Shown here: piece after piece, positions 19,085-64,000 of the stretch
Layout of the letters: every line of letters starts with the position of its first letter
How positions within the stretch are numbered: the stretch's first letter is position 1
From: Amphiscolops sp. MND2022
Taxonomy: Eukaryota
DNA: 64,000 bases
Direction: 5' to 3'
NCBI GenBank assembly: GCA_964187785.1
Contig: OZ076409.1
Location: 65,226,001-65,290,000, forward strand
Translations under genes and position numbers: made by a program
The notes under the pieces: generated by a model
What the model was told of the DNA's origin: nothing
Databases searched by the model: none
The model's input: the letters and a program-made list of their open reading frames with translations, nothing else

Positions 19085-19242
19085 GGAAAATGTATAAAAC
19101 ACACGCTTTTTCACGCGAAAAATATCAACACAAATTTATTCAATAAATTTTGCATTGACGCAAAAAAACAAAAGGTGGTCCCAAGCGATTTCTCCTTACT
19201 AAGTGTGGTCCCTGCATATTTTGTCAGAATTATTATTACAAC

Positions 19243-31423: not shown

Positions 31424-31721
31424 TGTTGAAAGTGACTTCCAAATTCCGCATGAATGAAAACTCATGAATGAAAAACTAGTGACTTGAGACTTGAAACTGC
31501 TGAACAAATGTCTTGAAACTGTTGAAAACTTTCTGATATCTCTAAAATTTGATGAAATTCTTTCGTTACTCCGATTTTCATCTCACAGCAAAGCAAACTG
31601 ACCCAGATTTCTGAGACGGGTCAAAATTCGTTGTTTTTAAATTTTCTTTGTCCCCCTCAGAAATCTGGGCCAAATCGGTAACCGGCCGTCAACTGAAACC
31701 AACGAAACAGCATTTTTTCCA
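31424..31721 (+). repeat. BEL/Pao 5' LTR
   Basis: TGTTGAAAG...TTTTCCA, direct repeat of 38906-39203. Confidence 0.95.
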
Positions 31722-31736
31722 TGGTGCCGCGACTAG
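31722..31736 (+). promoter_or_regulatory. Primer-binding site, tRNA-His-like
   Basis: TGGTGCCGCGACTAG directly after the LTR; resembles the complement of the metazoan tRNA-His 3' end (TGGTGCCGTGACTCG). Confidence 0.7.
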
Positions 31737-31905
31737 TGTGAAGTTCCCTTTGGACCTTTTTAGCAGTTTGGAGCAGTCGTCCTCTGGAGTTTTGTCATCT
31801 ACAATAACCCGGTGAGCTTGTTCCAAAAAAGCACGCTTCACGTGCGAAGGGTTTTTTTATTTTGCAATTTTAAACCATAGTTCAATTCAAGTGACAAAAT
31901 TCATT

Positions 31906-37900: not shown

Positions 37901-38939
37901 TAGGAAACTGGAATCCGAATGTTTGTTCTGCCGCCGTAGAAGAGCAAAATGTCTCCAACCCCTGATGGCCGATCTACCGACTGAACGCCTGGCATACAAG
38001 AAGCCCGCATTTACCAACACAGGTCTCGACTGTTTTGGACCTCTACATGTGACCGTCCGACGAACAACTGAAAAAAGGTGGATAATAATATTTACCTGCC
38101 TAACAACCAGAGCAATCCACCTAGAAGTTCTCCATAGTCTGAACACCAGCTCATGCATGATGGCAATTGACAGATTCGTGGCCCGTCGAGGTCGACTTGA
38201 TACTTTCTGGTCAGACAATGGAACCAATTTTGTCAGTGCCAGCAAAGAAGTCAACACCATAGAAACGCCAGCCCTTCAAGAAAAATGTGCCCAACGCCGT
38301 ATAAAGTGGAAATTCAATACTCCATCAGCACCCAATCAAGGAGGAGCTTGGGAAAGCCTAATCAAGTCATGCAAGAGGATACTTTTCACCGTTCTCGGAT
38401 CAAGCAAAGTGAAAGAAGAAGTTCTCATCACCTCAATTTGCCTAGTAGAGCAAGCAATGAATTCCAGACCTCTCGTTCCTGCAAGCTCTGATCCAACAGA
38501 TCTGAATGCCTTGTCTCCCAATAATTTCCTCAATTGTGGAGAAGTACTTCAGCCCGCAGTTTTTGCCCGAGATCCACATCACGCACACCATCGCCGAGTT
38601 TACCAGCAAGCTCAACATTATGCAGACGCCATATGGACACGTTTGCTCAAAGAATACGTGCCAACTCTAAATCTTCGACACAAATGGACAGAGACTACTG
38701 AGCCCTTAGCAAAAGGAGAACTAGTGTGGCTTGTGGAGAGTCACTCACCACGCGGAAACTACCATTTGGCCCGAGTGTGCGAGCTTCACTATGACAGCAA
38801 GGGAGTTGCAAGATCTGCTAAAATTATTACCAAGGAGGCAGTTTTGATGCGCCCTGTCAATAAATTGGTCAGATTGTGGAACGTCAGCAGCGCTACCCCC
38901 GAGGATGTTGAAAGTGACTTCCAAATTCCGCATGAATGA
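31906..38939 (+). pseudogene. gag-pol: BEL/Pao gag-pol polyprotein (Gag with three Cys/His knuckles, protease, RT, RNase H, integrase) with one stop and one frameshift
   Basis: FDGNPLDW, CPMC/CFSC/CPKQGC knuckles, LDSGS, YMDD, HVFGDAS, TIPKLEL, WSDNGTNF, GGAWE. In-frame TAA at 33685-33687 and a -1 shift at the A-run near 36363-36370. Confidence 0.93.
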
Positions 38940-39203
38940 AAACTCATGAATGAAAAACTAGTGACTTGAGACTTGAAACTGCTGAACAAATGTCTTGAAA
39001 CTGTTGAAAACTTTCTGATATCTCTAAAATTTGATGAAATTCTTTCGTTACTCCGATTTTCATCTCACAGCACAGCAAACTGACCCAGATTTCTGAGACG
39101 GGTCAAAATTCGTTGTTTTTAAATTTTCTTTGTCCCCCTCAGAAATCTGGGCCAAATCGGTAACCGGCCGTCAACTGAAACCAACGAAACAGCATTTTTT
39201 CCA
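38906..39203 (+). repeat. BEL/Pao 3' LTR
   Basis: Direct repeat of 31424-31721. Confidence 0.95.
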
Positions 39204-43073: not shown

Positions 43074-45176
43074 TATGGATTTTTAGAGTTTGTTATTCAC
43101 TGAAATTAGTATAAAGGAAAAATATAAAGAATGTGAAAACTTCATGAAAGAAATCTACGAGCAGACATCAAAAAATCGATTCAAGTCGATTCTTGTTGCA
43201 TCAATGAATAGCGAAAAATGCTTGTCAGGTGAAATGGATTCTCAAAACTGTACATGGTTCACAATATGGCGGAAATGATGACCTAAACATTCAAATGACC
43301 CTCATGCGACTCCCTCATTATATATATATAAAATGTTAATTGTGTTCCACGAACAGATTAGGGTGTGTATGCTTGCAACATGTTTTCTTCTAAGTTTGAC
43401 CCAGAACAAGAAGCGCAGTGACACTGCGATATTTTTCGTTAACTGTGACAACCGAAAACTTTCAGGGTGGATGTAGAATCATTATATTTCGCGGGTCGAG
43501 TGGCCCAAGTATGTAACTCTAACAGAAAAGGTTCTTGCTTGGTGGATCAGGTTTTGCTGAAGTGACTAGCTTAGCTAGTTTTCTCTCCAATATTCTCTTT
43601 GGCATCACCTGAGTGATCAAAAAAAGAGATTGAATAATATTATTACGACCATAAGCGACAAGGAACTAATTCTTTGTAATCATCAATCAAGTATTAATAA
43701 ATTGCCTAAGATCGGTAATGGTGATTCAGCCAACTATGCCACAGTTCCTTAAATCAGTTTCAGACACTGAATCGGTTCTATCACATTTCCCGAACTGATT
43801 CTTCTATCTCTCAAGTTTAGCTCGCGGAGCTACAGCCAACACAATCGTCTAGAGAAGTATCTTGTCTCTTCGAGGTTCAACTAGTTTTCTGCCCGACTGT
43901 TCGGTTGTGTCTACCTAAGTGTTTTCTAATTCCGCCTCATTTTGTTGATTCATCGCGCATGTCTCGGGTGGTTTCATCATGACATTCTATCATACTTGAA
44001 AATTGCTCTACATATGGGGCGTCGAAATCTTGAGTTTGCATGCTTCTACCTTGATGTCAACATCTACGCCAACGACAAATATTTCAACATCTTGTCTGAA
44101 GTTCACATTCCACAATAATGCAAGTCGCCAAAGATATTTGGAGGGTCGAGGGAGTTGCTTAATGACCTTCAAATTCGATGTGCACATGTTCTCTACAAGT
44201 GGGAGTTACGTTTTCGTCATTATGGGTGCGGTTCACCGCGAATCTTCTCGCCTGGCTGAAATGCATAAATTATCACGCAAATACACTGATTTGCAAGGTC
44301 TAAGATACGTTTTTCTATGTAACCAGGGGTCACCAGTCCTTGACCTTGAAGTTCTTTGTATTCATCCAAAGTTCCTACATGCCAAGTTAAACGGTCCCAG
44401 GGTCAATGGTTCCCGAGTTACATGATGTGCGTATCATTTGTTTACTCATGGCGGTTACCCCTGGATTGGTCCGCACGATCGGTCCCGTGTGCGTTAAAGA
44501 AACAATACTCCGCGCGCCATGTGTCGATTAAGGTATCTCCTTATCGCACAAAAGAAAATCTTCGCTCGGAGAGATCAATTTTGATCAAGCCGAATCAAAC
44601 AATTTCATCGGTCATGTCAATTCTACTTCGCTCAAACGAGTGGTAAACGCCAAAATCTGAAATTTTCACAGTGGACCTTTAAAGTTAGAGAGAAGATTCT
44701 CGCTTGAATATTCTTCACAAAAACCCGATTTTGTGATAATTTCCAGTTTTTTTAAACAAATAACAAAGGTGATTTACGCATAGGCCTTAAAAAGCGGTTA
44801 TAAACAGGAAATATCAAAAAGCAGTAGGAAACCTCTATTGAACGTTTTTTTAACCTAAACAAGAGAGAAGAATAGAACATGCAAAATAGACGGGACAAGA
44901 AACAACAGAAAAAAGACACAATCAGCGCAATTGAAACTTTACAAAGTTGAAAATCAACGGCAAATTTGGTGGTCTAAGGCTCTCCTGCTACAATAGTACC
45001 AGCAGATTTCGAGTTATTTGAAAAGAACGATATACAAAAAATGGAAAATTGATTAAATGTGAACAAAAACGTCAAATTGATCAGAAAGATTCCCGTACGT
45101 TTCAGAGACAACCAGATATTCTAGTAACGACGAGAAAAGAATAAACCACTTACGGGAATATACTGTCTTAAAGCAT

Positions 45177-47122
45177 TGTCGCAGGCTGCCGCCTGTGACG
45201 GCACTATGATTACGACAACAAGCAACGACCAAGAAGTCATACCCGGAACGCTGCCGACCTTTTAAGAATAAAACTGCTAAAACTTTGGAAACTGTTTACA
45301 TTATGTATTTTTGTTTGTATTTATTTTATTTGGTTTTTTATATTGGATGTTCAAACTAGTCTGTTAATGTTACGATTTGGGATTAGCCAAATCGGTTCGT
45401 TGATGCAGTAGCTGAATTAAATTGCAAAATTGTATTGATGCTGTAGCAAACAATAAGAGAGCAAGTTAATCGCGAGAAGGAAACGTGTTCAAGTGCGGAA
45501 ACGTCCCTTCTCGGCGATATAGCTCACCACAGTTGTGCTAGCCAATCACGTGCTGTAATTCTTGCTGTGCTATTATTGTATTTGTTAATTGGCCGGTTAG
45601 GGCCGTCTGACGAAATTCCGCTCTCGCTGCTCACTACTTTGGTCAAACGGCCGGTTCCGGCCACAAAGCAATAGTGAAGAGGGATTAACTTAGTACATCG
45701 TTGCTTTAATAATAATAATACAATTGTCCTTTCATGTAGTTTAAATGTTCATTGTTGATAATGTAAAGCATTGTTTAGTATTTGGCCGAGTAAGGCCCAT
45801 TGAACTAATATATATGGTTTCAATTGGTACTCTGGTCAAATGGTCAATTATGGCCACTTCATGCATATTTGTGTTTTATTGTTCAGTTAACCGAGTATTA
45901 ACCCAGAACCAGCATTAATTCATCCCTGAAACATGTAAAGGTGCTTACGATACTATATTATCTGTGTGATCCTAGTATACGTAAAAATAGACGGACAAGG
46001 CTATATTCCTTCACTCCACTATTGTGCTGTATGTACTCACGGAATTAAGCCCATTTCGGCTTCAGCATGAAATGTATTTTTATGAATGGGAATTCGTACA
46101 GTAGTCTTTGTGTACGATTATACATTCCATTCTCAGTGTAGTATATGATAAATCTTGTGTCGACACGTGCCTCCACTTCACTTTACGTGAGTTATGCAAA
46201 CAAAGGTATTTGTTGACACTTTGATGTACATGCCTTAATCGGCAACTCGTTTGAAGCTATCTTTTGACTATATGACCCATAAATGCCATTCCTTAGATGT
46301 CCCCGAAGGTATGTGAATATCAGGGTTTTCATCATGGAACCAATGGTCATATGATGCTATCAACCTAACTAGTTATGTATGGAATGTGACTGTCATTCCC
46401 TGAAGGGTATAAATACTGTCATCCCGTTGGGGAAATCATTAAATCATTTCGTTCTACTCTAGTTAAGTTTAATCCACAAACGGCACCGCTGTTATTTCCG
46501 TGTTGATTAATTTATTATTGATTCGGAACTGTTTCAATGCCAACCACTAGAAAACAAAAGAAAGCTAGAAAGTCTAGAGGACTTGAGATGTTATCAGATA
46601 TTGAAAATCTGGATATTATGTTAGGTGAAAACCACTTTGATAGAGGTGAGAGAAATGAAAGTGTGAATAGTAATCAAGCCGGTAGACCAGAAAGCCTATT
46701 TGGAGACGAACTTGAAAATGAGAATGAGTTCCCGAACTCAAGAAATAATGGACCAAGTCCAAATACTGAATTAGGCCATAATTCAATCAGAGAATGTTCA
46801 AGCGTTGAGATCAATAGATTGTCGAGTGAGTTAAATTCACGTATATCTCGAGAGATGGATGAAATGATGAACAGTGTCAGTGTTCAGATTCAAAGAGCCA
46901 TAAATGAGGCAATTAGCAGCCAAATTTTGCCTCAAATCCAAAATGTAGTTATGGCCGGATCGGGACAATTGACCAAAGGGGGATGGAACGTTCCGGCTGA
47001 GAGACCGGAAGGACATTCTGAAGTACTGCAAAACTTAGAACCTAAAAATAATTCTAAGAACAAACAGGCCAATGACCGTCCCAAAGACGGAGGCACAAGC
47101 ACAAACTCTCGTGCTTACGACA
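45177..47122 (+). repeat. 5' LTR (1946 bp)
   Basis: Direct repeat of 59698-61643; two substitutions found by eye. Confidence 0.95.
46408..46415 (+). promoter_or_regulatory. Candidate TATA box of the LTR promoter
   Basis: TATAAATA about 125 bp upstream of the gag ATG. Confidence 0.5.
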
Positions 47123-48240
47123 TGGTGACAGGAGAAAACGAATCTCCAATCGAAGTTCCTGAGTTTCTCACGGGACGAATCTCATCCAGAAACCATCTCG
47201 ACAGATCCTATGAGGACATTAACCTTGACACGACGATCCCAGCGCAAGAGAGAAATGCCCCGGCTACGCCAACTGACCCTATCACGCGACTAGCAGATGT
47301 CTTGACAACGATGCAGAATAGGCCGACAGCCCAACAACTCACTATACGCCCAGTCAATTCAAACACAATGACCTTTGATGGCAAGAGTGAAAAATTCGAG
47401 CTGTTCGAGGACCTGTTCCACACGATGATCAAGATGCAACCGGAAATGACGGAGCAGATGAAAATAAATCACTTCCACTCATTGCTGAGGAAGAATGCTC
47501 TCCAAACCTTCCGGAACATCAGCTCGAGCAATAGACAGACTTTAGAGGACGTATTGGTAATATTCAGACGAAAATACGTCAAACCAGAATCACAAGCAAC
47601 TGCCAAACATAAATGGCACCGTCTAGTTTTCGATCCTAACACGATGAAACTGCCAGATTTCCTTGAAGAATTAAATCAAGGGGCAGAAAAAGCATTCGGA
47701 GATCATGCACAGAAAATGATTGACAGTTTGCTTTACGCAAAACTGCCACCAAAACTGAAGCGGTCCGTAAACATGGCCAGACTCGAAAACGGCTCTTATG
47801 ACGAAATAGTTGCTCATTTAGAGAGAGAATTAGAACTAAATGCTCTTGAGGAATCAGACGACCTACCAATGGCCACAATGACCTCCTCGACAACAAAATC
47901 CAAAACTCCCCTAACTACTGGGCAAATGTCGGACATCACTTGCAACTACTGCAAGGAAAAGGGCCATATGGTCAAAGACTGCGAAAAATTGAAGAAGAAA
48001 AAGGAAAAAGATGCCCAGCAAGGCAAGCAGACTCAGAAAAAGACATATCCGGAGTGTGGCACTTGTGGCAAAAAGAACCACCCGGAAGAAAGATGCTGGC
48101 AAGGTGCTGGTGCGCATCTCAAACCCAAACGTACCAGACAAGATGACGCTAATGACGGTAACCCCAATTCAAAGGCGCAAAAACCACAAAACAAACCAAC
48201 ATCTTCCAACTCACAGACCTCATCTTCCAAGGATGAGTAA
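46537..48240 (+). CDS. gag: Gag (567 aa) with two CCHC knuckles; starts inside the 5' LTR
   Basis: TFDGKSEKFELFEDLF capsid-like motif, CNYCKEKGHMVKDC and CGTCGKKNHPEERC. Confidence 0.92.
   Translation: MPTTRKQKKARKSRGLEMLSDIENLDIMLGENHFDRGERNESVNSNQAGRPESLFGDELENENEFPNSRNNGPSPNTELGHNSIRECSSVEINRLSSELNSRISREMDEMMNSVSVQIQRAINEAISSQILPQIQNVVMAGSGQLTKGGWNVPAERPEGHSEVLQNLEPKNNSKNKQANDRPKDGGTSTNSRAYDMVTGENESPIEVPEFLTGRISSRNHLDRSYEDINLDTTIPAQERNAPATPTDPITRLADVLTTMQNRPTAQQLTIRPVNSNTMTFDGKSEKFELFEDLFHTMIKMQPEMTEQMKINHFHSLLRKNALQTFRNISSSNRQTLEDVLVIFRRKYVKPESQATAKHKWHRLVFDPNTMKLPDFLEELNQGAEKAFGDHAQKMIDSLLYAKLPPKLKRSVNMARLENGSYDEIVAHLERELELNALEESDDLPMATMTSSTTKSKTPLTTGQMSDITCNYCKEKGHMVKDCEKLKKKKEKDAQQGKQTQKKTYPECGTCGKKNHPEERCWQGAGAHLKPKRTRQDDANDGNPNSKAQKPQNKPTSSNSQTSSSKDE
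47123..47134 (+). promoter_or_regulatory. Primer-binding site, tRNA-Leu-like, within gag coding sequence
   Basis: TGGTGACAGGAG immediately after the LTR; 11/12 match to TGGTGTCAGGAG, the complement of a metazoan tRNA-Leu 3' end as I recall it. Confidence 0.6.
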
Positions 48241-48246
48241 AAAAAC
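48240..48246 (+). promoter_or_regulatory. -1 ribosomal frameshift heptamer A AAA AAC at the gag-pol junction
   Basis: Correctly phased in the gag frame; the -1 frame is open from here into the protease ORF. Confidence 0.7.
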
Positions 48247-51200
48247 TAACTTCGCCACGACTCCAATACAACCAACTAGTATCTGTCCGACAATATATCA
48301 GATCGGACCCTCCAACGCAAACTTTCCACCAATACAACCAACAATTGATGGGCTATCCCTCTGTTGTCTGGCAGCAGCAGATGGAAAAAGCTACCATTAT
48401 TACTTACAATAATACCCATTTGTTCCAAAAACCAATTCCTGTATGGGATCCTGATCACACATCTGCTTTCAATAGCCGATTCAGGCCCATTCCCTTGATA
48501 GATGATTACAACCCTACCTACATAGACCCCGATTACGGACGAGATCCCTATTGGGATACGGAACTCTACAACCAAGATCTGCTACAATTCCAATACGTCA
48601 TTGATGATATCGAACTCTACAACAAATCAGCCCATGAAAATCCTCCAATCACCCACAACAAGAAGACCAGAGCATTAATCGAAAACTGGCAAATGAATGA
48701 TGGTACGAACCATCCGGTGTTCCCAAACCCATTGGGGACCGAGAACCATGACAACAATACTGAACCCATACAACAATCACTACTAGATGAGAAACAATTC
48801 CAAAATGTCCTAATCACAAGGGACGGCGAACCAGACTGTATACCTTTGTCAACCAACATCAATCTCAAATGCAAGAAACGCATGTTGTATTTCCCAATGG
48901 ACTTTGGGGAATTGACCATAGATGGACTCATCGACACTGGAGCGCTGTCCAGTGCAATTCCTGAAATGGACCTCCGGAAAATCCGACTTTTATCTCCACA
49001 ATCTGTTATCCGGGAAGGCCCGCCTCCGAATTTCCAAATAATGGTCGCTAATGGGCAATTGGAAACTCCCAAGAGTACCATAGAGCTCAAATTTGAAGTT
49101 GGTGACATCGAGTTTCACGAAATTTTCATAGTCATGGAACACCTGACAGGTCCGATCATTGGACTAATGTTCCTTCAACGAAATCATACAGTTCTGGACA
49201 TGAGACAAGGAATACTAAACTTCCCATTCTTTTCAATGCAGCTCAAAACAGCTGATCATAAATATTCAAATGTACTAGAACCAATTCTCAACCCCACTGA
49301 AATAACCATTCCGCCAAACGACAGAGTCCTAATTAGGACCAATTCCCTACTGTATCCTGAAAACGCTGTCACTGGGATTTTACAACCGAGCGACCTTCTA
49401 CATGAAGAAGGCGACATCACCTTTTGCCCAGCTTTGGTCACTCTGAATGATGGCAACATATCGATACCTGTGAATAATTTCACAGACCACCCCTATAAAC
49501 TCAAAAAGGGACTCCATATTGCCAATTTCTCTGTCATGACGCCAGAACAAATGAAACATGTCAAACCGGTAGACCCGGCATCAACCTGGCATTTGTTACA
49601 AAACGACTAAGAGCAAGCAGCCCATTATGTCAGTAGCCTGATCAAGACGAACAGAAATTCACAAAACCCCGAAAACTACTGGTTCCCAACTCCGGAAAAT
49701 CCAGGGAATCCAGAAGAACACACTCCAATCCAGAAAAGAATCCTCCGCGAGCTACAAGCCCTACAGGATCTAGAATCCCTTGATCCCACGAAAGACGAGG
49801 AATCTAGGGAAAAATTCTTAAGAAATTTTGATTGGAAAGACTCCACCCTAACCCCGGAAGAGAAAACCAAAATTGAAGAATTGCTAGTGGAATTTCACGA
49901 CATTTTTGCGAGACACAGATTTGATATAGGCATGAATGAGGAATTCAAGGTGAAATTGACACCTAAGGACGATTCCCCAGCCTACAGCCAAAGCCTCCCT
50001 GCGCCAATAAACTTGAAAGAGGACATATTAGTCGAATTAGCCATGCTCCACAAATATGGCATAATAACTACTTTACCGTTCTCGAAATACGCCAGCCCAA
50101 TATTCGCACAAAAGAAACCAAATGGGAAGCTACGACTTCTGGTTGACTTGAGAAAAATCAACAACCTTATCTCGGATGATTATATCAACAATAATCACCC
50201 TGTTAGCACCTTGGTTGACGCTGCCCAACACTTGGCAGGCAAAAAACTGTTCTGTAAATTAGACTGTTCACAGGCATACCACTGCCTACCAATGGCCGAC
50301 CAACGCTCAATCGAAATGTTGGCTTTCAATTTTGCCAGCCGTACATTCGCGTACAGACGCTTAGCACAAGGCCTTAGTCGGTCACTATCCGCATTCTCAA
50401 GTTTCATGAGGGAATATCTCGACAAAGTCATTAAAGCGGATCAGTGCGCCCAGTATGTGGACGATATCGGCATCGCAGCCAATGATGTTGAACACCTCAT
50501 AATGAACCTGAGAGCAACATTCAAATGTATTCAAGAAGCAGGCCTTAAGTTGACAATGCACAAATGTCACTTTGGTGCAAAAGAAATTGATTTCCTCGGA
50601 CGGACTATTACCCCACAAGGCGTCAAACCCCAGAAACAGAACGTACAAAACTTTCTGGAAAAAACCAAATTCCCAAAGTCGAAAAAGGCTTTGCAGCGCT
50701 ACTTGGGGTTCTTGAACTACTACAGGAATTATGTCCCAAGACTATCCGAACGCCTTGCTCCATTCTACAAGATGCTCAAAAGTGACGAAAAAGTCCTAGT
50801 ATCGAAAGAATTAGTCCAACAATTCGAAGAAATCAACAAGGCACTCGACAAATGTTGTGACTTAGCCTTACAACAACCCATTCCTAACAAGCAGATTGCA
50901 CTCATGACAGATGCAAGTTTCGGAGCTGCAGGATACGCAGTACTCATTGAAGATGATCCGAGTCAGAAATTCACGTCAATCCGCAAATCATATGCACCGG
51001 TCGCTTATGGTTCAAAAACCTTCACCCCGGCCCAGATAAAGATGTCAATTTATGCAAAAGAATTTCTTGCGATTTATTTCGCATTCAAAGAATTTGGGCA
51101 TATTTTCTGGGGAGCGCCGAAACCGGTCATAATCCTAACCGACAACAAAGCAGTAACAAGATTCTTCCAAACGAAAATAATACCCCCAGCCCTGTGGAAT

Positions 51201-53450
51201 GCATGCGATTATGTGATCCAGTTCAACTTTGTCATAGCGCATATCCCGGGAGCACAGAACACAGCAGCTGACTATTTGTCCCGATTAGAGGCAGATCCAA
51301 AAGACAAATTAGTCATGAAGATCCGTGAGGACGTACAAACTCTACCAATTGAAATTAATGTTCAATCTGCAGGGGTATCACAGGAAGAACAAATATTCTA
51401 TACAAATGATGACGACGAGACAGAGGAACAGTATTGGGCAAGAAAAGAAGCAATCAGGAAAAATCCAATGACTGATGAGCCCACTGTTACTATAGAAACT
51501 CTGTCAACCAATTTGGTCAAACAACAACCAGACATCCAGGTCCGATTAAGGAAAACAAACCAGATAATCATCGAGCAGTCCAAAGATGCAGTATTGCAAC
51601 AATTGAAGGCAAAGCTCCTTCATGAAGACTATTCAGAAAACATGCTGCAACAGGATGCCCGATATAGACACTATGCAAATAATCTGGAACGAATTGTACT
51701 CAAGGACGAAATCCTGACGAGGCAATATTTTGATGAAACAGGGAATGTTAAATACCATCAAATTCTACTCCCGCAACACTTACTCTGGGAATTGCTTCAA
51801 TCCCTTCACGGGACAGCGCATAAACATCCCGGGATTTCAAAAATGCTGCAGGAAATCAGACAAAAGTATTACTACCCTAGCATGGCTAAACACGTCAAAA
51901 AGTGGGTAGAAGGGTGTGAACAATGTGCCAGAGACAAGAGAGTCCCTAACGCAACGATCACACCTGAGCTGCTCAACTTGCCCGAATGGGACCTTGGACC
52001 TGAAGACGCCATGCAGATTGACCTATTGCCGAATCTTCCCCCAAGTGGAGGGTATGAAAATGTCCTAACGGCAATTGATGTTTTCTCCAGATATTTATTC
52101 GCTTATCCCCTTACAGACGCATCAGCGATCAATGTGGCAAAAGCGCTCATTGACATAATGACCAAGCATGCATATCTCCCAACGACTCTTATTACTGATA
52201 AGGGTACTGCATTCACTTCTACGATTATTGCGGAGGTTACGCAAATTTTGGGCATTACACTCAAATGTGCAACGACAAAGCACCCGCAAACAATTGGGAA
52301 ATTAGAGCGGACCCATGCCTCATTAAAGACAAACCTCAAAATGGCATGTGGGGAATACCGCCGACAATGGCATAAATATTTGCCATTAGCAGTACTTAAT
52401 CATAATACGAGTTATCATGCCAGTATTGGTTGTGAGCCAACGAGAGTATTCCATGGCAGAATTCCCTATAACATTCTGGATCACAAGCTTGGAAATAATC
52501 CAAACGAAAGGATCAACCCTACAACCGAATTTGCAGAAGAAATCCAAAACCGGACAAAAATCCTAATTGACAAAACGAAGCAGAACATTATGCAGTCGTA
52601 CATCAAGTACAAAGAATATTACGACCGCAAAGCAAAAGCTGCTCCATTGGAAGAGAATGATTACTGTTTCGTCTTACAGCCGAAAGCGGATCATCAAGGA
52701 TCAAAAATTCCATTCCGCGATTACCGTTGGGTTGGACCATTTGTAGTCCAAAAGGTTTTGCCAAATGAAAACTACATAGTACGAAGGATCAATACGAACA
52801 AAACTCAAATTTTGCATCGCATTCGCCTTAAAAAGTTTATTCCCAATCAACCGCTTGAGGACAATTTCCGAGAACAACGTCTGCAGCCAGACGAAGAAAT
52901 TGTCATTCCGCAAGACGACCTATACGTCATAGCGTGGGAAACAGATTTTGGAGAGCAGCTAGTTACACGAGACAGCGAGCCTATTCCGACTAGCGCGCCG
53001 AATGGCGAACAGCCGAACACGGCAGAAACGAATGCAAATGACGTAAACGAGACCGAAGCGGATTACATAATCACGCGAGAAGAATTAAACAACGACAACG
53101 CGGCACACAGCCGGAATAAACGCTTAAATGATGACGTCACTGAAAGAAATAAAGCTACTGCAGTGACAGAAAATACCAAATCTGATTGGCCGAATCCGGC
53201 CGTTTCCCCAAAAAACCAAGAAAATTCTTTGCCGAATACGGCAGATGGACCGGAAAATGATGAAACTTTTTCAGAAAGAAATTCAATGAATGAAAACGAT
53301 GCACAAACCTCTCCAAAAAGGGGGGATGATATTATCGTGCCCGAAATATCCGAAAGCGATACTAGAAATGAAAGTCTGAGCCCTAGAGGAGGGAAATATA
53401 ATCTCAGGCCTAACCCTAATCCAAACTACTCAGAAGACTTCAGATACTAA
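48246..53450 (+). pseudogene. pol: Pol (protease, RT, RNase H, integrase) with a single in-frame stop at 49608-49610
   Basis: LIDTGA, RLAQGL, YVDD, TDASFG, ADYLSR, H..H...CEQC, QIDL/ITDKG/GKLE, WVGPF. ORFs 48345-49610 and 49881-53450 share one frame. Confidence 0.95.
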
Positions 53451-53693
53451 AGATTGAATTCTTCCCGAAAATGGGAGTTCTTTCTTATTATCTTCTTTTC
53501 CGTTTTTTTTCAGTCCATTTAGTATCTTTTGAATAATGGGACGAATGAAGGACCCCTCTCAAAATAAATAAATACGGGGGTGAAAGATACAAACAATGAG
53601 GAAACAGAAATCAAGGGCAAACGAAAGAATAAATACAACAAAGAAATTAACAAAGTTTACAGTTCGTAAGTACATAAATACATATGTACAGAA

Positions 53694-56600
53694 TCAGGCC
53701 TTAGTGGAGGAATCTTTATTGGGGCTCCCAGCAACAGAGGAAGCAGACGATCGTGAGCCGCTCCTACCTCTCCTTCGCTTCTTACTACTGGGAAACTTCA
53801 CAGCAGACTGATCACACACAGTACTGCTCTCTCCCAAATCTTCCTGGACTGAAACCCGTTTTGGAGCAGACTCAGCCTTGCGGTAAGTGGACAAGAGGGA
53901 TTTGTAAATTCCCGACCGACCGAAAGTATCCACATAGGCCCAAGGATCATAGTCGGAAGAGAAGGCAGAACGACCAAACGATGTGGAGAGAGTCGAAAAT
54001 TTGGCCAGATTGGAGTCCTCGCTGCTCCGGACGACAGAACCAATGACATTAGCCATATAACTCTGACAAGGCAGGATAAGGTCAGTGAACCGGCTCTGTC
54101 CACCAGCGGTAGTAACTCCCCCAAAGACGACATCTGGATAGCTGGGACGTACACAAACAGCTCAATTTGAAGAGGTATAGGAGATGGGAACGTTCATGGA
54201 GAAACTCGAGCCCCATCAGGAACTCGATCAAATCGGCAGACGTACTGGTGATGTCGAAATCAGGCCCGTAGGCGGTTCGGAGGTGATCCAATAGCTGGAT
54301 ATATTGATCCCGACACTGGGACTCATTTGAATCGTCCACCCAAGATCGGACTGCGAAGCTACTGTACAACACCTCGAAATGTCGTAAGGCTACATCCATT
54401 GGCCTCTTCAGCATAATAAAGGGGTCAAAAGCAGCAAGCCCCTTCACCAGATTAGTGCTGAGCCCAGTTCTTTGATGGATCCCATTGATTACAAACTGGA
54501 TGTAATGCTGGCTATCCTTGACGAAATCAGCCTTTACCGTCTCAGCAGTAGCTTGTATGGCAGCGCGCTCTGATTTCTTGCCGAAATGAAGACCTTCGGC
54601 TCTTGCTTTGCATGCGGCTGAAACCTTACTCGCTAGCTTAAGCCGGACAAGGTACTCGTCTCCTGAAAGGAAGGTGACCTCACTCGTCTGAAAGCGCAAG
54701 AGGAGAAACCAAGCGTTTGCTAGGGGCGCAGTGTCAGGGGTGTATATACGGGAACAGAGCAGGCTGAGAAATCGGCTTACTTCTCCACACAAGTAGAAGG
54801 ACGAATCGCGTCGATACTGTAGATTGACTGAGAAACTGGTGACGACTGAAAACAAAACTGTTGTCCAATTCAGGATGATAGACCCTCACTAAGGCTGCGA
54901 CAGATTATACCTACAATCGTTGACGATCCTACTGAAGAATTCCAGTTTGACGACGAAGAATTCGTCGCATATCACCGACCACTCAAAGCTCTGCACCTGG
55001 AACAAGACTATCATCAACCCTGTGATAAAACTGGACCCTACTGATCAGATGAAGAAAATTGATCTATATTCTCATGTGACTTAAAGGAGAAAAGATGAGA
55101 TCTAACCCTTCCTCGGGATCCTTGACCTTCTTGCAATGGCGCATGTGTGGTCAGGTACCGCACCACGTTCTTCCATTCGGCGATGAGTTCTCGACAAAGA
55201 ACAGGCAAGGTTGTCACTTCGAGCTTACAACTGGTCACAGCCTGGAAAGTACAATAAAGCCGCATGAGGATTCCAGACGAATAGGATGAAAGAGCCCTAC
55301 ATAAGCCTATGACTCCGATGAGAGAAATGCAAGGAAACTACTTACTTTGGTAAGTTCTGGGCTGCGGAGAACCCAATCTTCCGTGAGGGACCCACCCAGA
55401 GAAACCATCAAGGCTTGAAGGACGGAGAAGAAGTCTATCTTCCCAAAAACACTATAACTCGTCTTGTGCAGGAGATTGGGCAGGCTGAAGTGTTCGAAGC
55501 GCAGACAGCTTTGAACCCCCTGTTTGTAGTACTCTGACTCGTCGATGGCCCTGGGTAATTCAGAGTGACATCCAGAACAGGCTACGATCCCAGGTTTGGT
55601 AGATATGGCAGAGAGGAGTCGGGACAAAGACCCAAGTTCTCCTGTCACGTCTGTAGTGATCTGTGAGCTGCGACATATGAAGACTCTACAAAGCTCAGAG
55701 CCATTCCAGAACTTGATGGACATGTGCTTGTAGACTCCTTTGGTCTCGAACTCAAGAGCGAAGCACTGCTGAGTGTTGACATTCTCTGCTATGTCCTCAA
55801 GGCAACAGACGAAGAAGTGTTGGAAGATCGCCTAGAAACAAAACCTTTTGAAACCTTAGAAGGAATGGAACCTAAGTGGATGAAACAAACAAATGCTTAC
55901 CGACAATCTCTCTTCTCCCCAATCAAAGTCGTTGAAGGTAGCCTGATGATTGGTAAATGACCCCATCCGGGACCACAGATTTCGCAGAACCGTCAGATCT
56001 CCTTGGCTCTTGATGAAATCTCCAACCAGGCAGAGCTGAGTCTTGGTGCGAGATTCCGGGGTAACCAAAGCAGTGGTTGATCCTTTGACGAAGTCCTCAT
56101 AAAAGGGGAAGCGTTCTCCTATGTCCACAAGTTCAACGTGGATAAATTTGGGCAGCTCCTTAGCCAGCTCAACTTTGGACAACAACTTCCCATTGCCACC
56201 TCTGACTCTGTGTTGCACCTTCCCTGTCACCGGATCCGTGCTCCGCAAATGTTCATAGCGCCAGCGTTGGTCGCGTCGCAGATGGCGCTCCGTTCGGTGG
56301 TGTCTCAATATCTCGTAAGGGCCCTTGGACTTGATGGAGAAGTTCTTCTTGCAGATATGACACCAAACCATATGAGGATTATGGAGTGGGTCAGCAGGGC
56401 CTGAAATGAAGGACCTGGTCCATCCGATCTTTGCGAAGAACTCTTCTCGCATAGGGACACCTCGTTTGGAGAGATTCCGGTTGCCTCTCTTCTTCTTGGA
56501 CTTGGACGAACCGGCAGCGGCACGTTCTAGGACCTGGTCCCTGACTTCAAGGAGCGTGGCATCTTGACTGCTGTATTCTGGAGTATCAGCCTGAGAATCC

Positions 56601-57907
56601 AAGCCAGACGCCTGCAGAACTAGCGAACCATGTGTCTCAGCGGGTTTCTTGAAGGACTTCGCTATCAAATCCAGCTCAGTAGCATTGTCGCTTTCCCCAT
56701 AATATGAAGAATCTCCAGTGTCTTCCGAACTCGACGATCCGGCAACCCTCTCCCTTGACGTGACTTCCCCTTCAGAGTCACTCCCACTAGAGTCTCCAAT
56801 ACTACTGGGACCCGGTGTCTGAGCCCGCCTCCCTGCAAAGAAATGAGCAGTTCGCGATGGGGCGACAGTAGGTTTTCCACGGACTGCATCTGTGACCATT
56901 TGTTCCATGGTCGAAAAGGACCGGCTGAGAGTCTCGTCGGTGAGGACTCTAAGGAGATGGTACACCTGTGGCTCAGTAAATGACACAGTGGTATGACCTA
57001 CTGGAAGTCGTACAGAGGGGGACTCGTCGAAGTATTCTTTGAGGATAGCCCGACTTCTGCCCGAGAGGTGGGGTGGTTCCCGGTGGGACTCAGCCTGTCC
57101 AGGGGCCTGTCTACTAGTACCAGGGACAGGAAGTTCCGAAGCGGTCTCATCTCCTCCTTCAGTTTCAGAGGCATGTGCGAAGGGAGTGTAACCATACAAG
57201 GCCACAGGAACCACCACGCTAGATTGGTCAGTAGCTCCTTCATCCCCACTAGGGTCAGTTAGGTACCGAATTTTGCATTCTCCTCCAGGAAGTGGGGGAG
57301 CGTCGCCAATGGATGATGCGGCATCGTAGTCCTGATGTGCCAGGGAGTCACTCTCAACGTTGGCATCGGATTGGGTAACATCCACAAGTTCAGCAAATTG
57401 GGACCCAGAACTCTCGACTACTCGCAGAGCAGACTCTAGGGCAGACAAATTAGCTGTTGGAGCCTCCCCCATTTCGGTAACCAAAGGGGTGCTTGCCCTC
57501 CTAGTCTCCCCAACGTTTGAGGCGGACGAATCCTCCTGGACACCAGGGTCCGTACCCTGACTTGGATCGAGCTGTGTGGCTTCTTGTTGAGTTCGGTCTG
57601 ATGTCTGAGAACTCTCTAGCTGTCGGACCATATTCTCGGCATAAATAGTCACGTCCAAATCACTGTCTGCACTATGAATGGAGGTGGCTTCATCGGGTCG
57701 ACTTTCATTCTTCTTTTCGTCAGGATGGATGCTGAGTGTGGTTTGGGACGTATCAGGATGTGGGATTTGCGATCCCATCTCAGTTGGAAGACTAACTATC
57801 GGGACAGTTGTAGAAGGGTTGGCTGATGTGCTGGCAATTTCAGTTGTCTGATTCTCTAAACGAAAAGAGATAAAGTTTGGCGGTATGCTTCCTCGAAAAG
57901 AATCCAT
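53694..57907 (-). CDS. Antisense multi-exon accessory gene (about 1250 aa): disordered N-terminus, BED-like zinc finger, degenerate hAT-transposase-like body; one frameshift near 54150
   Basis: VWCHICKKNFSIKSKGPYEILRHHRTERH. Predicted GT-AG introns 55832-55900, 55242-55345, 54997-55106, 54846-54914 and probably 54688-54780 join the minus-strand ORFs in frame. Confidence 0.75.
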
Positions 57908-59003
57908 TCTACCGCATTAGAAATCTTCCGGAAGTACTTGAGAATTTGAACAAAATGTGCTATCACGCGCTTATTAGTGGAAACAGGAAGCTTATTATGA
58001 ACGAAGTCTAGCCCTGATCAAGCTAAACTAGTTCAATATATGAAAATCAGACCAACCTGTGTTCGAAGACATGTTCCCTCAGTGTTGTTGTTCCAACGGA
58101 AGTTGTTTGTGCTGAGAAGAAGACTTTGTAGAGCTGAATTGACTACGACAGGGACAAAAGGAAATCTGGGATACTCCGGAGAGAAGAGCTGGAGGAAGCA
58201 GTTGTGTAGTTGTGGACACACAAGGATGAATGACGGTTAGATAAATGCAAATAGCAGAAGCAGATATGAATGATCAGAAATGGAATTGGCTTAGAACTTT
58301 AATGTAAAGGAATTGAAGAGTTGGAGTTCGTGGCTGAAGATTATTACCAGACTAATATTATGGGATTATTTACATATTTATTCTGTACATGGAGTCTGCC
58401 AGCGAAATGTACAAAGATTACTTCATTATTTACAACTTATGGAATTATTGGCCGGTTACGGCCGTTTACCCTATTTCGGTTTACCATCTCGTTCCATTTT
58501 GTTTGTTGTCCTAATCGGGACTTCCGTTATTTTAGTTACTCAAATTGTTATTTCCGCCATTTTGAATTATTTTAATTTATCATTTTCGCCATTTTATTAC
58601 TTAATTTTTCATTTTATCGGAGCTTAACTCTGATTGGCTGAAGCCATGTTGAAAGAATTTAGCGGCGTGCGCCGTTAATAGCCTTCAAGCGACCCGTTAA
58701 TTACCCACTTGAGATGGAGAGAATTGACGTTAACAACTCAAGCGTCGTTCACACCTCTTCAGGCGATGGCGTTGATGACGAGTAAACATCGGTATATCAA
58801 AGGCGGCCAACTAATTATGGAATTCCATTCAGGAATGTTTATGTCGGATCAGGACAATTTACCGAAGATTCAACCGCCGAAAACGAATTGCCGGGAAAAA
58901 GCCCGAGTCGGCTAAATTCTCAAATTTGTTGGGTTCATTCTATCTCAAACTTTGACTCTGACTAGTTGCCTCCTCAAGCTTCAAGATAGCTAAAAAACTC
59001 ATA

Positions 59004-59786
59004 ATGAGCAAGTACAACCTGGCGAGAAAATTATTCAACTTGGACTATGATTCTGATGAATCTAACGAATCTGTCATCTACATATCTAGTAGTGAGAGTG
59101 AAGCCTCAGATTGGGAAACCGATTATTCCACTGATACTGAACAACTGGTAGCCAGGATCGAGAGAGAGGTAATCTCCAGCCCCATGTTAACAGGGGGCCG
59201 CATTATGACTGTAGACTTGCCCAAAGAAGAAGAAGATACAGAAGCTGGCCCAAGCTCCAGACAGATGCAGGCGGACGTTACCCCGAAGTTGGACCACAAA
59301 TACTTCGATAAAGAAATGTGTTATGCTCCTCCAAAGAAGATAGGGAAATCTCGGATAGAGCTTTGCAAAACTCTACTTCCTGTCACGGAATCACCACTGT
59401 CACCGCCTCCTCATGAGAGAGGACCGTCTGTGGACACACCGCTAGTAGTGGCTGATTCAGGATTCAGGGCTTCATACCACATTCAAAACACGAGGCCGTA
59501 CGAGAACGTGAGCGAAACACGTTATACCGGATGTATGGTCTGCGGCCGCTCAGTAGATGCGATCAAGAAACAACGAGTCGACTGGTACATGAACAGATCT
59601 ACACCGAGAGATGAGCCAGAATTCATAACGAAGCTGAGGAGAGAAGCCTACGAAAACGGATTGAATGCAGGTTCGTTTCTTTTTCTTGCACCCGCAGTGT
59701 CGCAGGCTGCCGCCTGTGACGGCACTATGATTACGACAACAAGCAACGACCAAGAAGTCATACCCGGAACGCTGCCGACCTTTTAA
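59004..59786 (+). CDS. Accessory ORF of unknown function (260 aa); its last 29 or so codons lie in the 3' LTR
   Basis: ATG-initiated intact ORF with an acidic Ser-rich N-terminus and a CMVC motif; AATAAA directly after the stop (59788-59793). Confidence 0.7.
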   Translation: MSKYNLARKLFNLDYDSDESNESVIYISSSESEASDWETDYSTDTEQLVARIEREVISSPMLTGGRIMTVDLPKEEEDTEAGPSSRQMQADVTPKLDHKYFDKEMCYAPPKKIGKSRIELCKTLLPVTESPLSPPPHERGPSVDTPLVVADSGFRASYHIQNTRPYENVSETRYTGCMVCGRSVDAIKKQRVDWYMNRSTPRDEPEFITKLRREAYENGLNAGSFLFLAPAVSQAAACDGTMITTTSNDQEVIPGTLPTF

Positions 59787-61643
59787 GAATAAAACTGCTA
59801 AAACTTTGGAAACTGTTTACATTATGTATTTTTGTTTGTATTTATTTTATTTGGTTTTTTATATTGGATGTTCAAACTAGTCTGTTAATGTTACGATTTG
59901 GGATTAGCCAAATCGGTTCGTTGATGCAGTAGCTGAATTAAATTGCAAAATTGTATTGATGCTGTAGCAAACAATAAGAGAGCAAGTTAATCGCGAGAAG
60001 GAAACGTGTTCAAGTGCGGAAACGTCCCTTCTCGGCGATATAGCTCACCACAGTTGTGCTAGCCAATCACGTGCTGTAATTCTTGCTGTGCTATTATTGT
60101 ATTTGTTAATTGGCCGGTTAGGGCCGTCTGACGAAATTCCGCTCTCGCTGCTCACTACTTTGGTCAAACGGCCGGTTCCGGCCACAAAGCAATAGTGAAG
60201 AGGGATTAACTTAGTACATCGTTGCTTTAATAATAATAATACAATTGTCCTTTCATGTAGTTTAAATGTTCATTGTTGATAATGTAAAGCATTGTTTAGT
60301 ATTTGGCCGAGTAAGGCCCATTGAACTAATATATATGGTTTCAATTGGTACTCTGGTCAAATGGTCAATTATGGCCACTTCATGCATATTTGTGTTTTAT
60401 TGTTCAGTTAACCGAGTATTAACCCAGAACCAGCATTAATTCATCCCTGAAACATGTAAAGGTGCTTACGATACTATATTATCTGTGTGATCCTAGTATA
60501 CGTAAAAATAGACGGACAAGGCTATATTCCTTCACTCCCCTATTGTGCTGTATGTACTCACGGAATTAAGCCCATTTCGGCTTCAGCATGAAATGTATTT
60601 TTATGAATGGGAATTCGTACAGTAGTCTTTGTGTACGATTATACATTCCATTCTCAGTGTAGTATATGATAAATCTTGTGTCGGCACGTGCCTCCACTTC
60701 ACTTTACGTGAGTTATGCAAACAAAGGTATTTGTTGACACTTTGATGTACATGCCTTAATCGGCAACTCGTTTGAAGCTATCTTTTGACTATATGACCCA
60801 TAAATGCCATTCCTTAGATGTCCCCGAAGGTATGTGAATATCAGGGTTTTCATCATGGAACCAATGGTCATATGATGCTATCAACCTAACTAGTTATGTA
60901 TGGAATGTGACTGTCATTCCCTGAAGGGTATAAATACTGTCATCCCGTTGGGGAAATCATTAAATCATTTCGTTCTACTCTAGTTAAGTTTAATCCACAA
61001 ACGGCACCGCTGTTATTTCCGTGTTGATTAATTTATTATTGATTCGGAACTGTTTCAATGCCAACCACTAGAAAACAAAAGAAAGCTAGAAAGTCTAGAG
61101 GACTTGAGATGTTATCAGATATTGAAAATCTGGATATTATGTTAGGTGAAAACCACTTTGATAGAGGTGAGAGAAATGAAAGTGTGAATAGTAATCAAGC
61201 CGGTAGACCAGAAAGCCTATTTGGAGACGAACTTGAAAATGAGAATGAGTTCCCGAACTCAAGAAATAATGGACCAAGTCCAAATACTGAATTAGGCCAT
61301 AATTCAATCAGAGAATGTTCAAGCGTTGAGATCAATAGATTGTCGAGTGAGTTAAATTCACGTATATCTCGAGAGATGGATGAAATGATGAACAGTGTCA
61401 GTGTTCAGATTCAAAGAGCCATAAATGAGGCAATTAGCAGCCAAATTTTGCCTCAAATCCAAAATGTAGTTATGGCCGGATCGGGACAATTGACCAAAGG
61501 GGGATGGAACGTTCCGGCTGAGAGACCGGAAGGACATTCTGAAGTACTGCAAAACTTAGAACCTAAAAATAATTCTAAGAACAAACAGGCCAATGACCGT
61601 CCCAAAGACGGAGGCACAAGCACAAACTCTCGTGCTTACGACA
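59698..61643 (+). repeat. 3' LTR (1946 bp), including a second copy of the gag N-terminus (61058-61643)
   Basis: Direct repeat of 45177-47122. Confidence 0.95.
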
Positions 61644-64000
61644 AGCATCAAAAACTAATGATCAGATTACTTCAATTGACGAAAATGGACCAATAGGTAA
61701 AAATGAGAAGTTTCAAGAATTTCAAAGACCTATTCGAAAATGTCTCCGAAAGACATTGTCTCACGCAGAGAAGTTTGAGGTAAAAGGGTAGGTTAGAAAG
61801 AATTTCTAAAGGTCATTATCCACGGGACACTGAAGGTGATCCGATACCATGTTGAGAATCAGGTGAAGTTACCAGCGAACTAAAAGAAGGCCAATCGGAT
61901 TTTGATTGAGAAGAAAGAGAAATGAGGCCACGAGAAACGAGGCCTCGGAATTTGCTGCCATTCAAACTCAACCGGATGAACGGCACGAAGAGGAATCCGA
62001 GGTCAGTTAATTTAGACTCAATCGATTCCTCCCAATTATAATCGTTGTTGAACTGTTCTGCTGCTGAACCGGAGCAGAATGTTTTGCAAAAAAGTTTTTG
62101 CTGCAGAGTTCTTCAGCTTTTTTCCCAGCTGAAGTGTGCTCGAAAGCTTTCTTCAAAGAGTTTATTGCAGATTTCAGAGCCGCCGCGTTTTGTAAGATCA
62201 CCTATAGCTGCACACACATTATCATTACTCTGGCCTTTTATAAACTTTCTAGCGTTGTTCACTCTAGTGTTTCTCCTTGAGATGACTTTTCCCAACATAT
62301 TTGTCACAGGGTAAGAAGCAAACTACATGTTTTATTGCAGTATAGCGACATTGCAAAACTGTTTGTCAACTTTTTTCTAACTAATCCAGATAGTGTACAT
62401 GCGACTAACGTATTTCCAGCAAATCAATAACCTAAACTGAGCATACAGTTGATTACATACATATCATTCAATAAACGTGACAGTTAATTAAAAGTTCGGC
62501 ACAGTTTTTCACTCTGACTCACGTTTCGTTGAGTTGCTTTTCCTCAATAAATTTGCTGAGCGTTGCCCTTTATATCATCTTGCTTAAGAACGAGTGGAAG
62601 AATTGTCAAAAAGCATAGAGCAATCAACGTGTGATGTGCATTGTCCTGGAGACAAACGTATTGTCGGAAACTGAAAGTGGGAGTAGTTTTGAAAACACAC
62701 GTATTGCAATAAAAACACACTAACTGAAGTTACCACTGTCATTTTGGTAAACACTCTATTTTTTTCGGTATAATGTACTGTCAGACGCCTGAGCATAATA
62801 TGTCGTGGCTGCGGTATCAACTTGCCTAGTTACTTCACCATTCTGTTATATCAACTTCTCCATCAACGATTTGAGAACAGAGATTTCGCTCTGTAATTTC
62901 CCAAGCCTCTCTTCAATTTCACGCTGTGTTTGGTGCGTGATCGAAGGAGAAGAAGAGTTTTGTTGTCCTTGTTGATTTTCAATAATATCGGTGCTATCTA
63001 TGTTGTGTAACGGCAAGCTGTTATCGGTCGCTTAACACGTTAACAGAGGTGGAGGAACCTGCAGAAATGGGTGAATCGCTCGGGACAGGCGCCCATCGCC
63101 ACAGATCCATTTTGCCTCCAGGGGTGAAATACGTCCCGGGGCCGCGGGTGCTTCGACGAATACTGTCCAACCGGTCCTAGTCTTTGATTGCTAATAGTAA
63201 CGGGCATCTTTCTGGCTCTCTAAAGACCACCGCTTAACTAGCATATAAAAACAATGCCAAGAATAAGGTAAATTTCCAGTTCCAGGGTGACATGTGAATA
63301 AGATCTAAAATTGGGGAATAAGATCTAAACTAGCGCTAGCGCTACTGAATACAGCCAAAATCACTGAAAATACATGAAAACAGGCACGAATATGGCAAAC
63401 CACACAGCTAAAAAGCTGGGGCGCAGGGGCTCCAAGCACCAAACAAGGATCTTTAGGCGAAAAGACTCATTTTTACGGTTTCCGCTACATAGGGTAGCAT
63501 AATGCTGAAAATCGATAAAACCGGTGTTAGCACCTCAAAAAGAGTCTATTTTCGGATGTTCTTGCCGTCTCTGGCTTCTGTCATGGCGGCGCGCCCGTAT
63601 TTTTGCTCGTTCTTGCTCTTTGTTGTCGAAGTACCTGCCAATTTCGTGGAAACAGCGAAAAGAGCAATCACATGCTCAGTGCCACGTCACACATCGGATT
63701 AGAATTTTTGACAAAATTTCTGAACATGTCAAAGTTGCAAAATCGGTTGATATTGCTGTACCAGAGCTTGCCGTTACATCACTCCCCGGGCTTTATGCAT
63801 GACGTCCCTGTCATGCGGAGAGGCTGGCATTGAATACATCGCCACATCATGAGTGCAATCCACGGGGGTCTCAAACTGGTGATGTTGCAACGGTTCAGTG
63901 GCACTGTCATCTTTCGCTGATTGGGCAACCATGAGGTCTTGCTTCTTGCCATCCAGAGAACCTGCATGGTCCACAAACTGTTGAAACAGAGCTAGCTCGA

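Follow-up and report, generated by a model that had tools for sequence, protein, structure and literature searches.

A Ty3/Gypsy retrotransposon family of Amphiscolops sp. MND2022 retains a spliced antisense gene that is probably a disabled hAT transposase

How does a long, intron-bearing gene come to lie antisense in a retrotransposon, and what would the element use it for? The question is raised by a 64,000-nt stretch of the genome (1.07 Gb) of Amphiscolops sp. MND2022 (GCA_964187785.1, contig OZ076409.1, 65,226,001–65,290,000 of the forward strand; hereafter, the window), which holds a complete, young Ty3/Gypsy long terminal repeat (LTR) retrotransposon at 45177–61643. An earlier sequence-only reading placed a minus-strand gene between pol and the 3' LTR of this element, joined from several open reading frames (ORFs), and regarded it as an inactive derivative of a hAT transposase. 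The position is borne out: pol ends at 53450 and the 3' LTR starts at 59698. The gene belongs integrally to the element family, in which it is under selection, and is not a nested passenger. It is a real, family-wide, spliced antisense gene, and what the retrotransposon has kept in it is probably a disabled hAT transposase.

Gene structure, selection, and allele swapping

The gene model consists of six exons and five GT-AG introns (Table 1) and was fixed by conservation among elements. The sequence-only reading started the gene at 57907, which is a second in-frame ATG inside intron 0, conserved in 16/16 aligned; the true start is the ATG at 58072, reached via a 16-nt exon 1, and intron 0 itself had been missed. 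Of the four to five introns of 69–110 bp proposed earlier, four stand at those sizes, and the fifth, of 93 bp (54780–54688), was rejected as coding, since divergent copies lose its GT and AG yet keep the peptide. Across 20 divergent elements, the GT/AG sites recur with identical phase and the intron lengths vary freely; the lengths of exons 3, 4, and 5 are fixed at 486, 135, and 82 nt. Nine of the first ten of these elements retain the last exon, and in all nine the five introns begin with GT and end with AG at matching codon positions, with lengths of 65–205 bp; one element has a single-base shift in exon 3, and another is interrupted past exon 5 by an internal deletion. The second ten show the same pattern, except for one element with a shifted donor and another (L106) that lacks introns 2 and 4 exactly. 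This precise loss is strong evidence that the segments are true introns, and the conservation of their borders indicates that the antisense gene is spliced.

In the window copy, a frameshift near 54150 against 12/12 sisters leads to a stop at aa 1146, so that its reading frames do not join into the expected protein of about 1250 aa. Eight of the 12 sisters could be modelled from exact anchors, all open and each of 1278 aa; two of the other four have single-base gaps in the gene. The C-terminal KKRRRGRS tail is indeed encoded (53783–53760, exon 6), but the frameshift puts it out of frame in the window copy. Among the divergent elements, the gene is open in 13/20 (1252–1319 aa), one of which lacks the usual first ATG.

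A retained gene should recur in other copies with dN/dS below 1, as the sequence-only reading had noted. All 20/20 divergent elements, which were selected through the antisense gene itself so that gene-less elements fall outside the count, carry it in the same setting, with pol antisense downstream and ORF3 and the 3' LTR upstream. These elements span Pol identities of 70–98% and finger-region identities of 46–77%. A neighbouring element found via gag and pol alone (L151) also carries the gene. The gene is kept under purifying selection: where dS can be estimated (it is saturated for most between-clade pairs), dN/dS is 0.01–0.09 across the finger, the core, and most of the last exon, with 0.21 in one distant pair, and 0.08–0.27 over the N-terminus, and it reaches 0.61 in one tail window. 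The hAT terminal inverted repeats (TIRs) and 8-bp target-site duplication (TSD) expected of a nested transposon do not flank the gene; 39 chance-level 12-mers were found, with a best TSD match of 5/8. Protein searches of the genome give 7,000–8,900 first-look candidates, which are not copy numbers, and the last-exon profile yields 579 clusters at 50% identity. Other organisms probably harbour relatives too, because P0321 matches this genome at only 26–31%; a 1.2-kb metagenome contig without context holds a 61% match to P0321, and a metagenome scan with the finger alignment gave no match.

The antisense gene is also swapped among pol lineages. Against the window copy, the proportion of synonymous differences (pS) is 0.80–0.98 (saturated) in the finger region and 0.11–0.66 in reverse transcriptase plus integrase. 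When clades found in the tree of one gene are imposed on the other, 6/6 approximately unbiased (AU) tests reject them, with p-AU from 1e-3 to 1e-156 for groups named after both trees were seen. In 10/12 sisters, the allele of the window (gene 99% identical) is paired with a different LTR and ORF3. The integrase is under much stronger constraint, with a proportion of nonsynonymous differences (pN) of at most 0.014 in the near clade.

Protein features and ancestry

The acidic/Ser-rich N-terminus (D+E 17% and S+T 25% in aa 1–250), the basic patch (56503–56483), and the BED-like finger (C-x2-C...H-x4/5-H, 56362–56282), all in exon 2, lie where the sequence-only reading had put them, and the C-x2-C and His ligands of the finger are invariant or nearly so. 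The language model Atlas relates the finger region to the hAT-derived FAM200/GTF2IRD2/ZBED5 (0.81–0.83, lead level) and the last exon to Dimer_Tnp_hAT in 23/30 matches (0.92–0.94). A structure model of exons 3–4, built from a 118-row alignment, shows an RNase H topology over residues 1–100 (block predicted local distance difference test score, pLDDT, 73–89); the RNase H-like fold is thus present in the N-terminal half only of the model, and by Z it is not hAT-specific. In Foldseek, Hermes ranks second, with a top query TM-score of 0.35–0.36, and it gives the longest structural alignments of low root-mean-square deviation, taking in the helix that precedes the first strand. The order of finger, helical linker, core, and long helical region agrees with the hAT order outlined in PMC6027215. 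On the Atlas leads, the fold, and the domain order, we consider hAT ancestry likely.

The catalytic residues of Hermes are D180, D248, and E572, along with R318/W319 (as given in PMC6027215). We inferred the catalytic register of the antisense gene from aligned ranges and from hAT ORFs of this genome. A CxxH motif follows the second Asp in hAT transposases and is visible in those ORFs. The earlier suggestion of an inactive derivative holds with a different emphasis: it had pointed to the first catalytic Asp, whereas the apparent losses lie mainly in the second Asp and the CxxH His. The D180 equivalent is mostly Glu (Glu 90, Ala 24, Val 3, and Ser 1 of 118 sequences), preceded two residues earlier by an invariant Glu (116/118). 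The D248 equivalent is Gly in 116/118, with at most 3 Asp across columns 83–89; at the CxxH equivalent, Cys is kept in 86/118 and the final position is Phe in 117/118. No conserved RW or late Glu was seen by eye. Since the second Asp and the CxxH His appear lost and the first site is Glu, Ala, Val, or Ser, cutting activity is unlikely, and catalysis has very probably been lost.

Several results weigh against hAT ancestry. Pfam finds no hAT family at threshold in the window exons, the alignments, or 40 divergent proteins; zf-BED is matched in only 1/15, at E 0.62; and PDB sequence profiles give nothing under E 0.2. The hidden Markov model (HMM) of the family reaches a best E of 0.05 against ORFs from 55 PF05699-match loci, many of them fragments or mainly other elements. 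HHalign of the family against a local hAT alignment gives a best P of 0.07, in the finger only (controls 0.12–0.83), and sub-profiles of the hAT C-terminus and core give no score ≥5 bits against 509 family fragments. The Atlas recognition value of the last exon (2276) falls under the 2300 mark, and the Z of Hermes (6.1–7.0) is tied with kinases, integrases, and RNase H domains. The model of the last exon is all-helical, with a pLDDT of 65.5 and <50 in the last third, and the exon cuts across domains; it matched no hAT structure in PDB, VIA-wide, or BFVD. The proposed derivation from hAT thus finds support in Atlas and in the fold, where Hermes aligns longest, but not in sequence homology by Pfam, HMM, or HHalign.

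The gene could alternatively come from another DDE family with CxxH and a helical insertion (MULE, P, or Kolobok) or from a host ZBED-like gene. The family-bearing Atlas rows for two separate regions are both hAT-derived, Hermes gives the longest structural alignments, the domain order agrees with hAT (PMC6027215, in outline), and a host ZBED donor would itself descend from hAT; we judge a non-hAT origin distinctly unlikely, a question separate from that of the role discussed below. A simple nested hAT transposon, or a still active transposase, is scarcely credible. The genome does contain many genuine hAT transposases (150 scored matches to PF05699), and the prevailing Glu at the first site would retain an acidic residue; yet nesting is refuted because purifying selection conserves the gene throughout the family, paired TIRs with an 8-bp TSD are absent, the second Asp is absent, and no free-standing copy occurs among the loci fetched with flanks. 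Several apparently complete hAT transposase ORFs without introns, of 597–697 aa (at L110:-, L111:+, L112:+, L113:-, and L114:-), are not detectably related to the antisense gene. Elsewhere, a host SMC1 gene with long exons adjoins a hAT remnant (L136:1622-2680 and 4802-5770). This SMC1 marks the genome as animal-like, since it matches the SMC1A entries at E 6e-98 but two SMC1 entries of 1228 and 1225 aa, presumably fungal, at only 2e-40 and 1e-25.

Organization of the element, ORF3, and intron 0

The two LTRs of the window element differ by 2 mismatches. TSDs of 5 bp flank 17/18 family elements checked, the TGG primer-site motif is conserved in 18/18 elements printed, and the Pfam domain order of pol (protease, reverse transcriptase, RNase H, and integrase) is that of Ty3/Gypsy; LTRs, TSDs, primer-binding site, and pol order thus all agree with membership. 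An in-frame stop interrupts pol at 49608–49610, where two other family members have a continuous frame. No obvious purine-rich tract precedes the 3' LTR (59670–59697) in the clade of the window, where ORF3 codons cross the junction; a divergent clade has a short G-rich tract there. A tRNA search of the window found none.

Table 1. Window positions of the features of the retrotransposon and its antisense gene
Feature	Position	Strand	Remark
Target-site duplication, left copy	45172..45176	+	AGCAT, 5 bp
5' LTR	45177..47122	+	1946 bp, TG...CA; contains first 195 codons of gag frame
gag ORF	46537..48240	+	Start within LTR; DUF1759 and CCHC knuckle (weak)
Primer-binding-site-like TGG motif	47123..47140	+	Inside gag frame
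pol	48237..53450	+	-1 frame relative to gag; protease, weak dUTPase-like stretch, reverse transcriptase, RNase H, integrase
Exon 6	53694..54845	-	Encodes all-helical region and the basic tail; reading frame disrupted near 54150 in window copy
Intron 4	54846..54914	-	69 bp, phase 1; precisely absent in L106
Exon 5	54915..54996	-	82 nt
Intron 3	54997..55106	-	110 bp, phase 0
Exon 4	55107..55241	-	135 nt
Intron 2	55242..55345	-	104 bp, phase 0; precisely absent in L106
Exon 3	55346..55831	-	486 nt; RNase H-like core
Inferred CxxH equivalent	55507-55496	-	CxxF
Inferred Hermes D248 equivalent	about 55573	-	Gly
Inferred Hermes D180 equivalent	about 55747	-	Glu
Intron 1	55832..55900	-	69 bp, phase 0
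Exon 2	55901..57855	-	Acidic/Ser-rich region, basic patch, BED-like C2H2 finger, conserved helical linker
Intron 0	57856..58056	-	Unusually conserved
Long-range stem in intron 0	57991-57986 with 57892-57887	-	
Covarying hairpin in intron 0	about 58035-57997	-	Invariant GAUCA loop 58019-58015
Exon 1	58057..58072	-	16 nt, ATG 58072
Non-coding spacer	58073..59003	.	About 930 bp, between head-to-head accessory genes
ORF3	59004..59786	+	Second accessory gene, 260 aa; runs 89 bp into 3' LTR
3' LTR	59698..61643	+	
Target-site duplication, right copy	61644..61648	+	AGCAT, 5 bp

ORF3 has an acidic N-terminus and conserved C...H...CxxC residues and matches nothing in Pfam; it is detectable in 20/20 divergent elements at 28–78% identity, with a pN/pS of 0.11–0.42. 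The spacer between ORF3 and the antisense gene is a candidate bidirectional promoter. Conservation of intron 0 extends to the most distant clades, and the intron shows covarying pairs. Compensatory changes occur in 9/27 pairs, 93.9% of cells are paired, and double-changed cells number 42 versus 16.8 in shuffles, a count reached in 0/500 shuffles; the signal stems from a small number of related clades and is inflated by their relatedness. Folded singly, the sequences do not outperform shuffles (z -0.2 and -0.7), and an Rfam search gave a single chance-level match, outside the gene. Because the intron holds the second in-frame ATG, its retention would change the N-terminus. Intron 0 also keeps several GGAA-type blocks, including the palindromic TTCCGGAA, which could presumably be DNA sites for ETS-like factors.

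Other observations concern the element family and the remaining window. The gag frame (its LTR part also at 61058–61642) starts ~585 bp inside the LTR and crosses the primer-binding site; the LTR-encoded part of Gag is present in 20/20 divergent elements (34–90% identity) and is far more variable than the remaining Gag. A dUTPase-like Pfam match between protease and reverse transcriptase is weak (49293–49550, E 0.045); a dUTPase is placed likewise in Burro and in fungal and rotifer elements, according to the account in PMC6431247. Rearranged family members (L070-L071, L072-L073, L076-L077, and L108-L109) include one with an unrelated LTR element (133-bp repeats) nested in it, one with an internal duplication, one that has lost exon 6 together with half of pol, and one without gag in which the antisense gene persists between two LTRs; one locus (L152) holds only an LTR and an ORF3 tail. 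A second, unrelated LTR element lies at 31424–39203 in the window, with 298-bp LTRs (99.7% identical), a CTGTC duplication, and a TGG primer site; it gave no tblastn match to the Pol of the antisense-gene family at E 1e-4. The window also contains a tandem duplication of about 2.14 kb (328–4611, 99.5% identity); nested inverted repeats (51 bp and 136 bp) accompanied by a tandem array of 27-bp units, resembling a miniature inverted-repeat transposable element (10792–11441 and 19228–19374), one arm of which recurs at 19.3 kb; and a degenerate integrase-like stretch at 14338–15144, with 23% identity to the Pol of the window element.

Proposed role, competing explanations, and known systems

A DNA transposon gene, most likely a hAT transposase, may long ago have ended up in antisense orientation within the 3' internal part of an ancestral Ty3/Gypsy element, after which the transposon ends and the catalytic site would have decayed and the protein would have been retained. 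Splicing of the genomic RNA does not touch antisense introns, which are hence copied along with the element. Since the antisense gene is untranslatable from the genomic RNA, it would need its own promoter and its product would act in trans; the gene would be transcribed from this internal promoter and spliced, giving a nuclear protein of about 1250–1320 aa. The conserved finger, the two basic patches, the dead transposase body, and the acidic, fast-evolving N-terminus suggest a DNA-binding regulator. The finger and the dead body would bind DNA, and the acidic, disordered N-terminus would recruit host machinery; its most likely job would be to maintain transcription of family members or to protect them from chromatin silencing, the part played by TnpA and VANC for plant DNA transposons. 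The whole chain, a captured hAT transposase kept as a trans-acting, TnpA-like DNA-binding regulator, is in our view a serious possibility that falls just short of probable. More tentative is the fuller picture, in which a class I element would have domesticated a whole class II transposase in a head-to-head regulatory cassette with a small zinc-binding ORF3 and a structured, self-regulating intron 0; ancient alleles of this cassette, swapped among pol lineages, would underlie the expansion of the family in this genome, as a counter-silencing system that arose by domestication of one transposon by another.

Part of the evidence does not sit well with a DNA-binding regulator. The alleles are not locked to LTR type (10/12 sisters), which argues against a tight pairing of protein and LTR motif, and no strong repeated binding motif was found in the LTR or spacer, with CGGCC weakly enriched in 8/18 LTRs. 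Free swapping makes a fast-changing LTR motif an unlikely target and the linked spacer, intron 0, or the constant LTR tips better candidates. CpG is barely depleted in the window (observed/expected 0.7–1.1), so a VANC-like demethylation role as such is unlikely and DNA methylation is unlikely to be the opposing mark.

The constancy of the LTR tips could instead point to a role in integration, in which the dead transposase binds LTR tips or chromatin, tethers or imports the pre-integration complex, and steers insertion. Transposase bodies are established binders of element ends, no DNA of the family is more constant than the tips (TGTCGCA...GACA in 17/18 printed), which fits free allele swapping among LTR types, and the two basic patches could serve nuclear import. 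Nevertheless, the 5-bp TSDs are varied with no visible target consensus, the protein comes from a separate mRNA without an evident route into particles, and the integrase is intact besides being far more constrained; we regard an integration helper as unlikely. The protein could also work at the RNA level, binding the element RNA (export, stability, or packaging, as in Rev or CERV) or the hairpin of its own intron 0 to autoregulate splicing. Cer1 CERV of C. elegans is reportedly a precedent for such a factor. Intron 0 alone is conserved among the introns and has covarying structure, the U-G pairs of which suit a pre-mRNA of the antisense strand; in one helix, the 5' splice site is paired to a segment close to the 3' site. 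The genomic RNA is about 14 kb. On the other hand, the folding results and the few related clades behind the covariation weaken this case, several invariant blocks could be GGAA-type DNA sites (presumably of the ETS kind), and the finger and transposase body point to DNA, which makes an RNA-level factor improbable. A counter-defence by protein contact would titrate or block a host silencing factor without sequence-specific binding to the element, and the old alleles would record an arms race. The gene pS of 0.7–1.0 between elements whose reverse transcriptase plus integrase pS is 0.1–0.66, and the old alleles kept and shuffled between discordant trees, would fit it; a dN/dS far below 1 in all estimable windows and a finger that is the most conserved part would not, and we find this explanation quite improbable.

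Antisense additional ORFs (aORFs) are described for Retand (TRP28, PF04195), Grande (gene23), RIRE2, and the fungal Boty (PMC11963269, PMC7264820). As far as these accounts go, they resemble the present family as Ty3/Gypsy elements with a conserved antisense gene between pol and the 3' LTR, and differ in that the Amphiscolops sp. gene has an animal host, five introns, about 1270 codons, and a BED-like finger with an RNase H-like body. Pfam found no TRP28 (PF04195) domain, which marks the plant Tat/Retand lineage, in the antisense gene. For the Grande aORF, an own internal promoter and a nuclear protein are shown and the function is unknown, and a nested-transposon origin of antisense aORFs is called unsupported (passages in PMC7264820); the gene described here looks like a case of such an origin. 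In En/Spm and VANDAL, TnpA and VANC are likewise transposon-encoded accessory proteins, to which the regulatory likeness would be by analogy. TnpA is of transposase origin and acts in trans as a regulator of cognate copies (bioRxiv 10.64898/2026.08.24.746577, PMC13547354, in summary), and the AtMu1 transposase alone activates cognate copies (bioRxiv 10.64898/2026.08.24.746577). From these summaries, TnpA and VANC remain in their own class II element and TnpA keeps only the DNA-binding part, whereas the class I element here appears to keep a whole foreign class II transposase. Planarian Burro, in the account of PMC6431247, is similarly a large Gypsy element with extra coding capacity and a dUTPase-like stretch between protease and reverse transcriptase, but the accessible part of that account names no transposase-derived or spliced antisense gene.

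In the order of its finger, helical linker, RNase H-like core, and long helical region, and by the Atlas and fold leads, the protein resembles hAT transposases (Hermes, Ac) and the host-domesticated ZBED5/FAM200/GTF2IRD2. It differs from them in its lack of TIRs, its incomplete catalytic set, the absence of a detectable PF05699 motif, and its owner, which is a many-copy retrotransposon family and not a single host locus. Among animal Gypsy elements, Cer1 of C. elegans is said to carry an accessory gene, CERV. By these analogies, the antisense gene may function like the Retand/Grande aORFs and perhaps like TnpA, but it belongs to neither group and is no longer a hAT transposon. This layout was not described in the titles and abstract openings of the literature searched, a scope outside which lie most subscription journals and Repbase Reports, where prior annotation is possible.

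Where the antisense accessory genes of LTR elements come from and what they do are stated as open questions in the available text of PMC7264820 and PMC11963269. The present family offers an antisense gene with a traceable origin, probably a disabled transposase, and a clear selection signal. With it, retrotransposons would join host genomes and DNA transposons as domesticators of transposases, and a candidate animal equivalent of the plant TnpA/VANC proteins would be at hand. The family also illustrates how introns, and RNA structures within them, can persist for long periods in a retroelement when they lie in antisense orientation.

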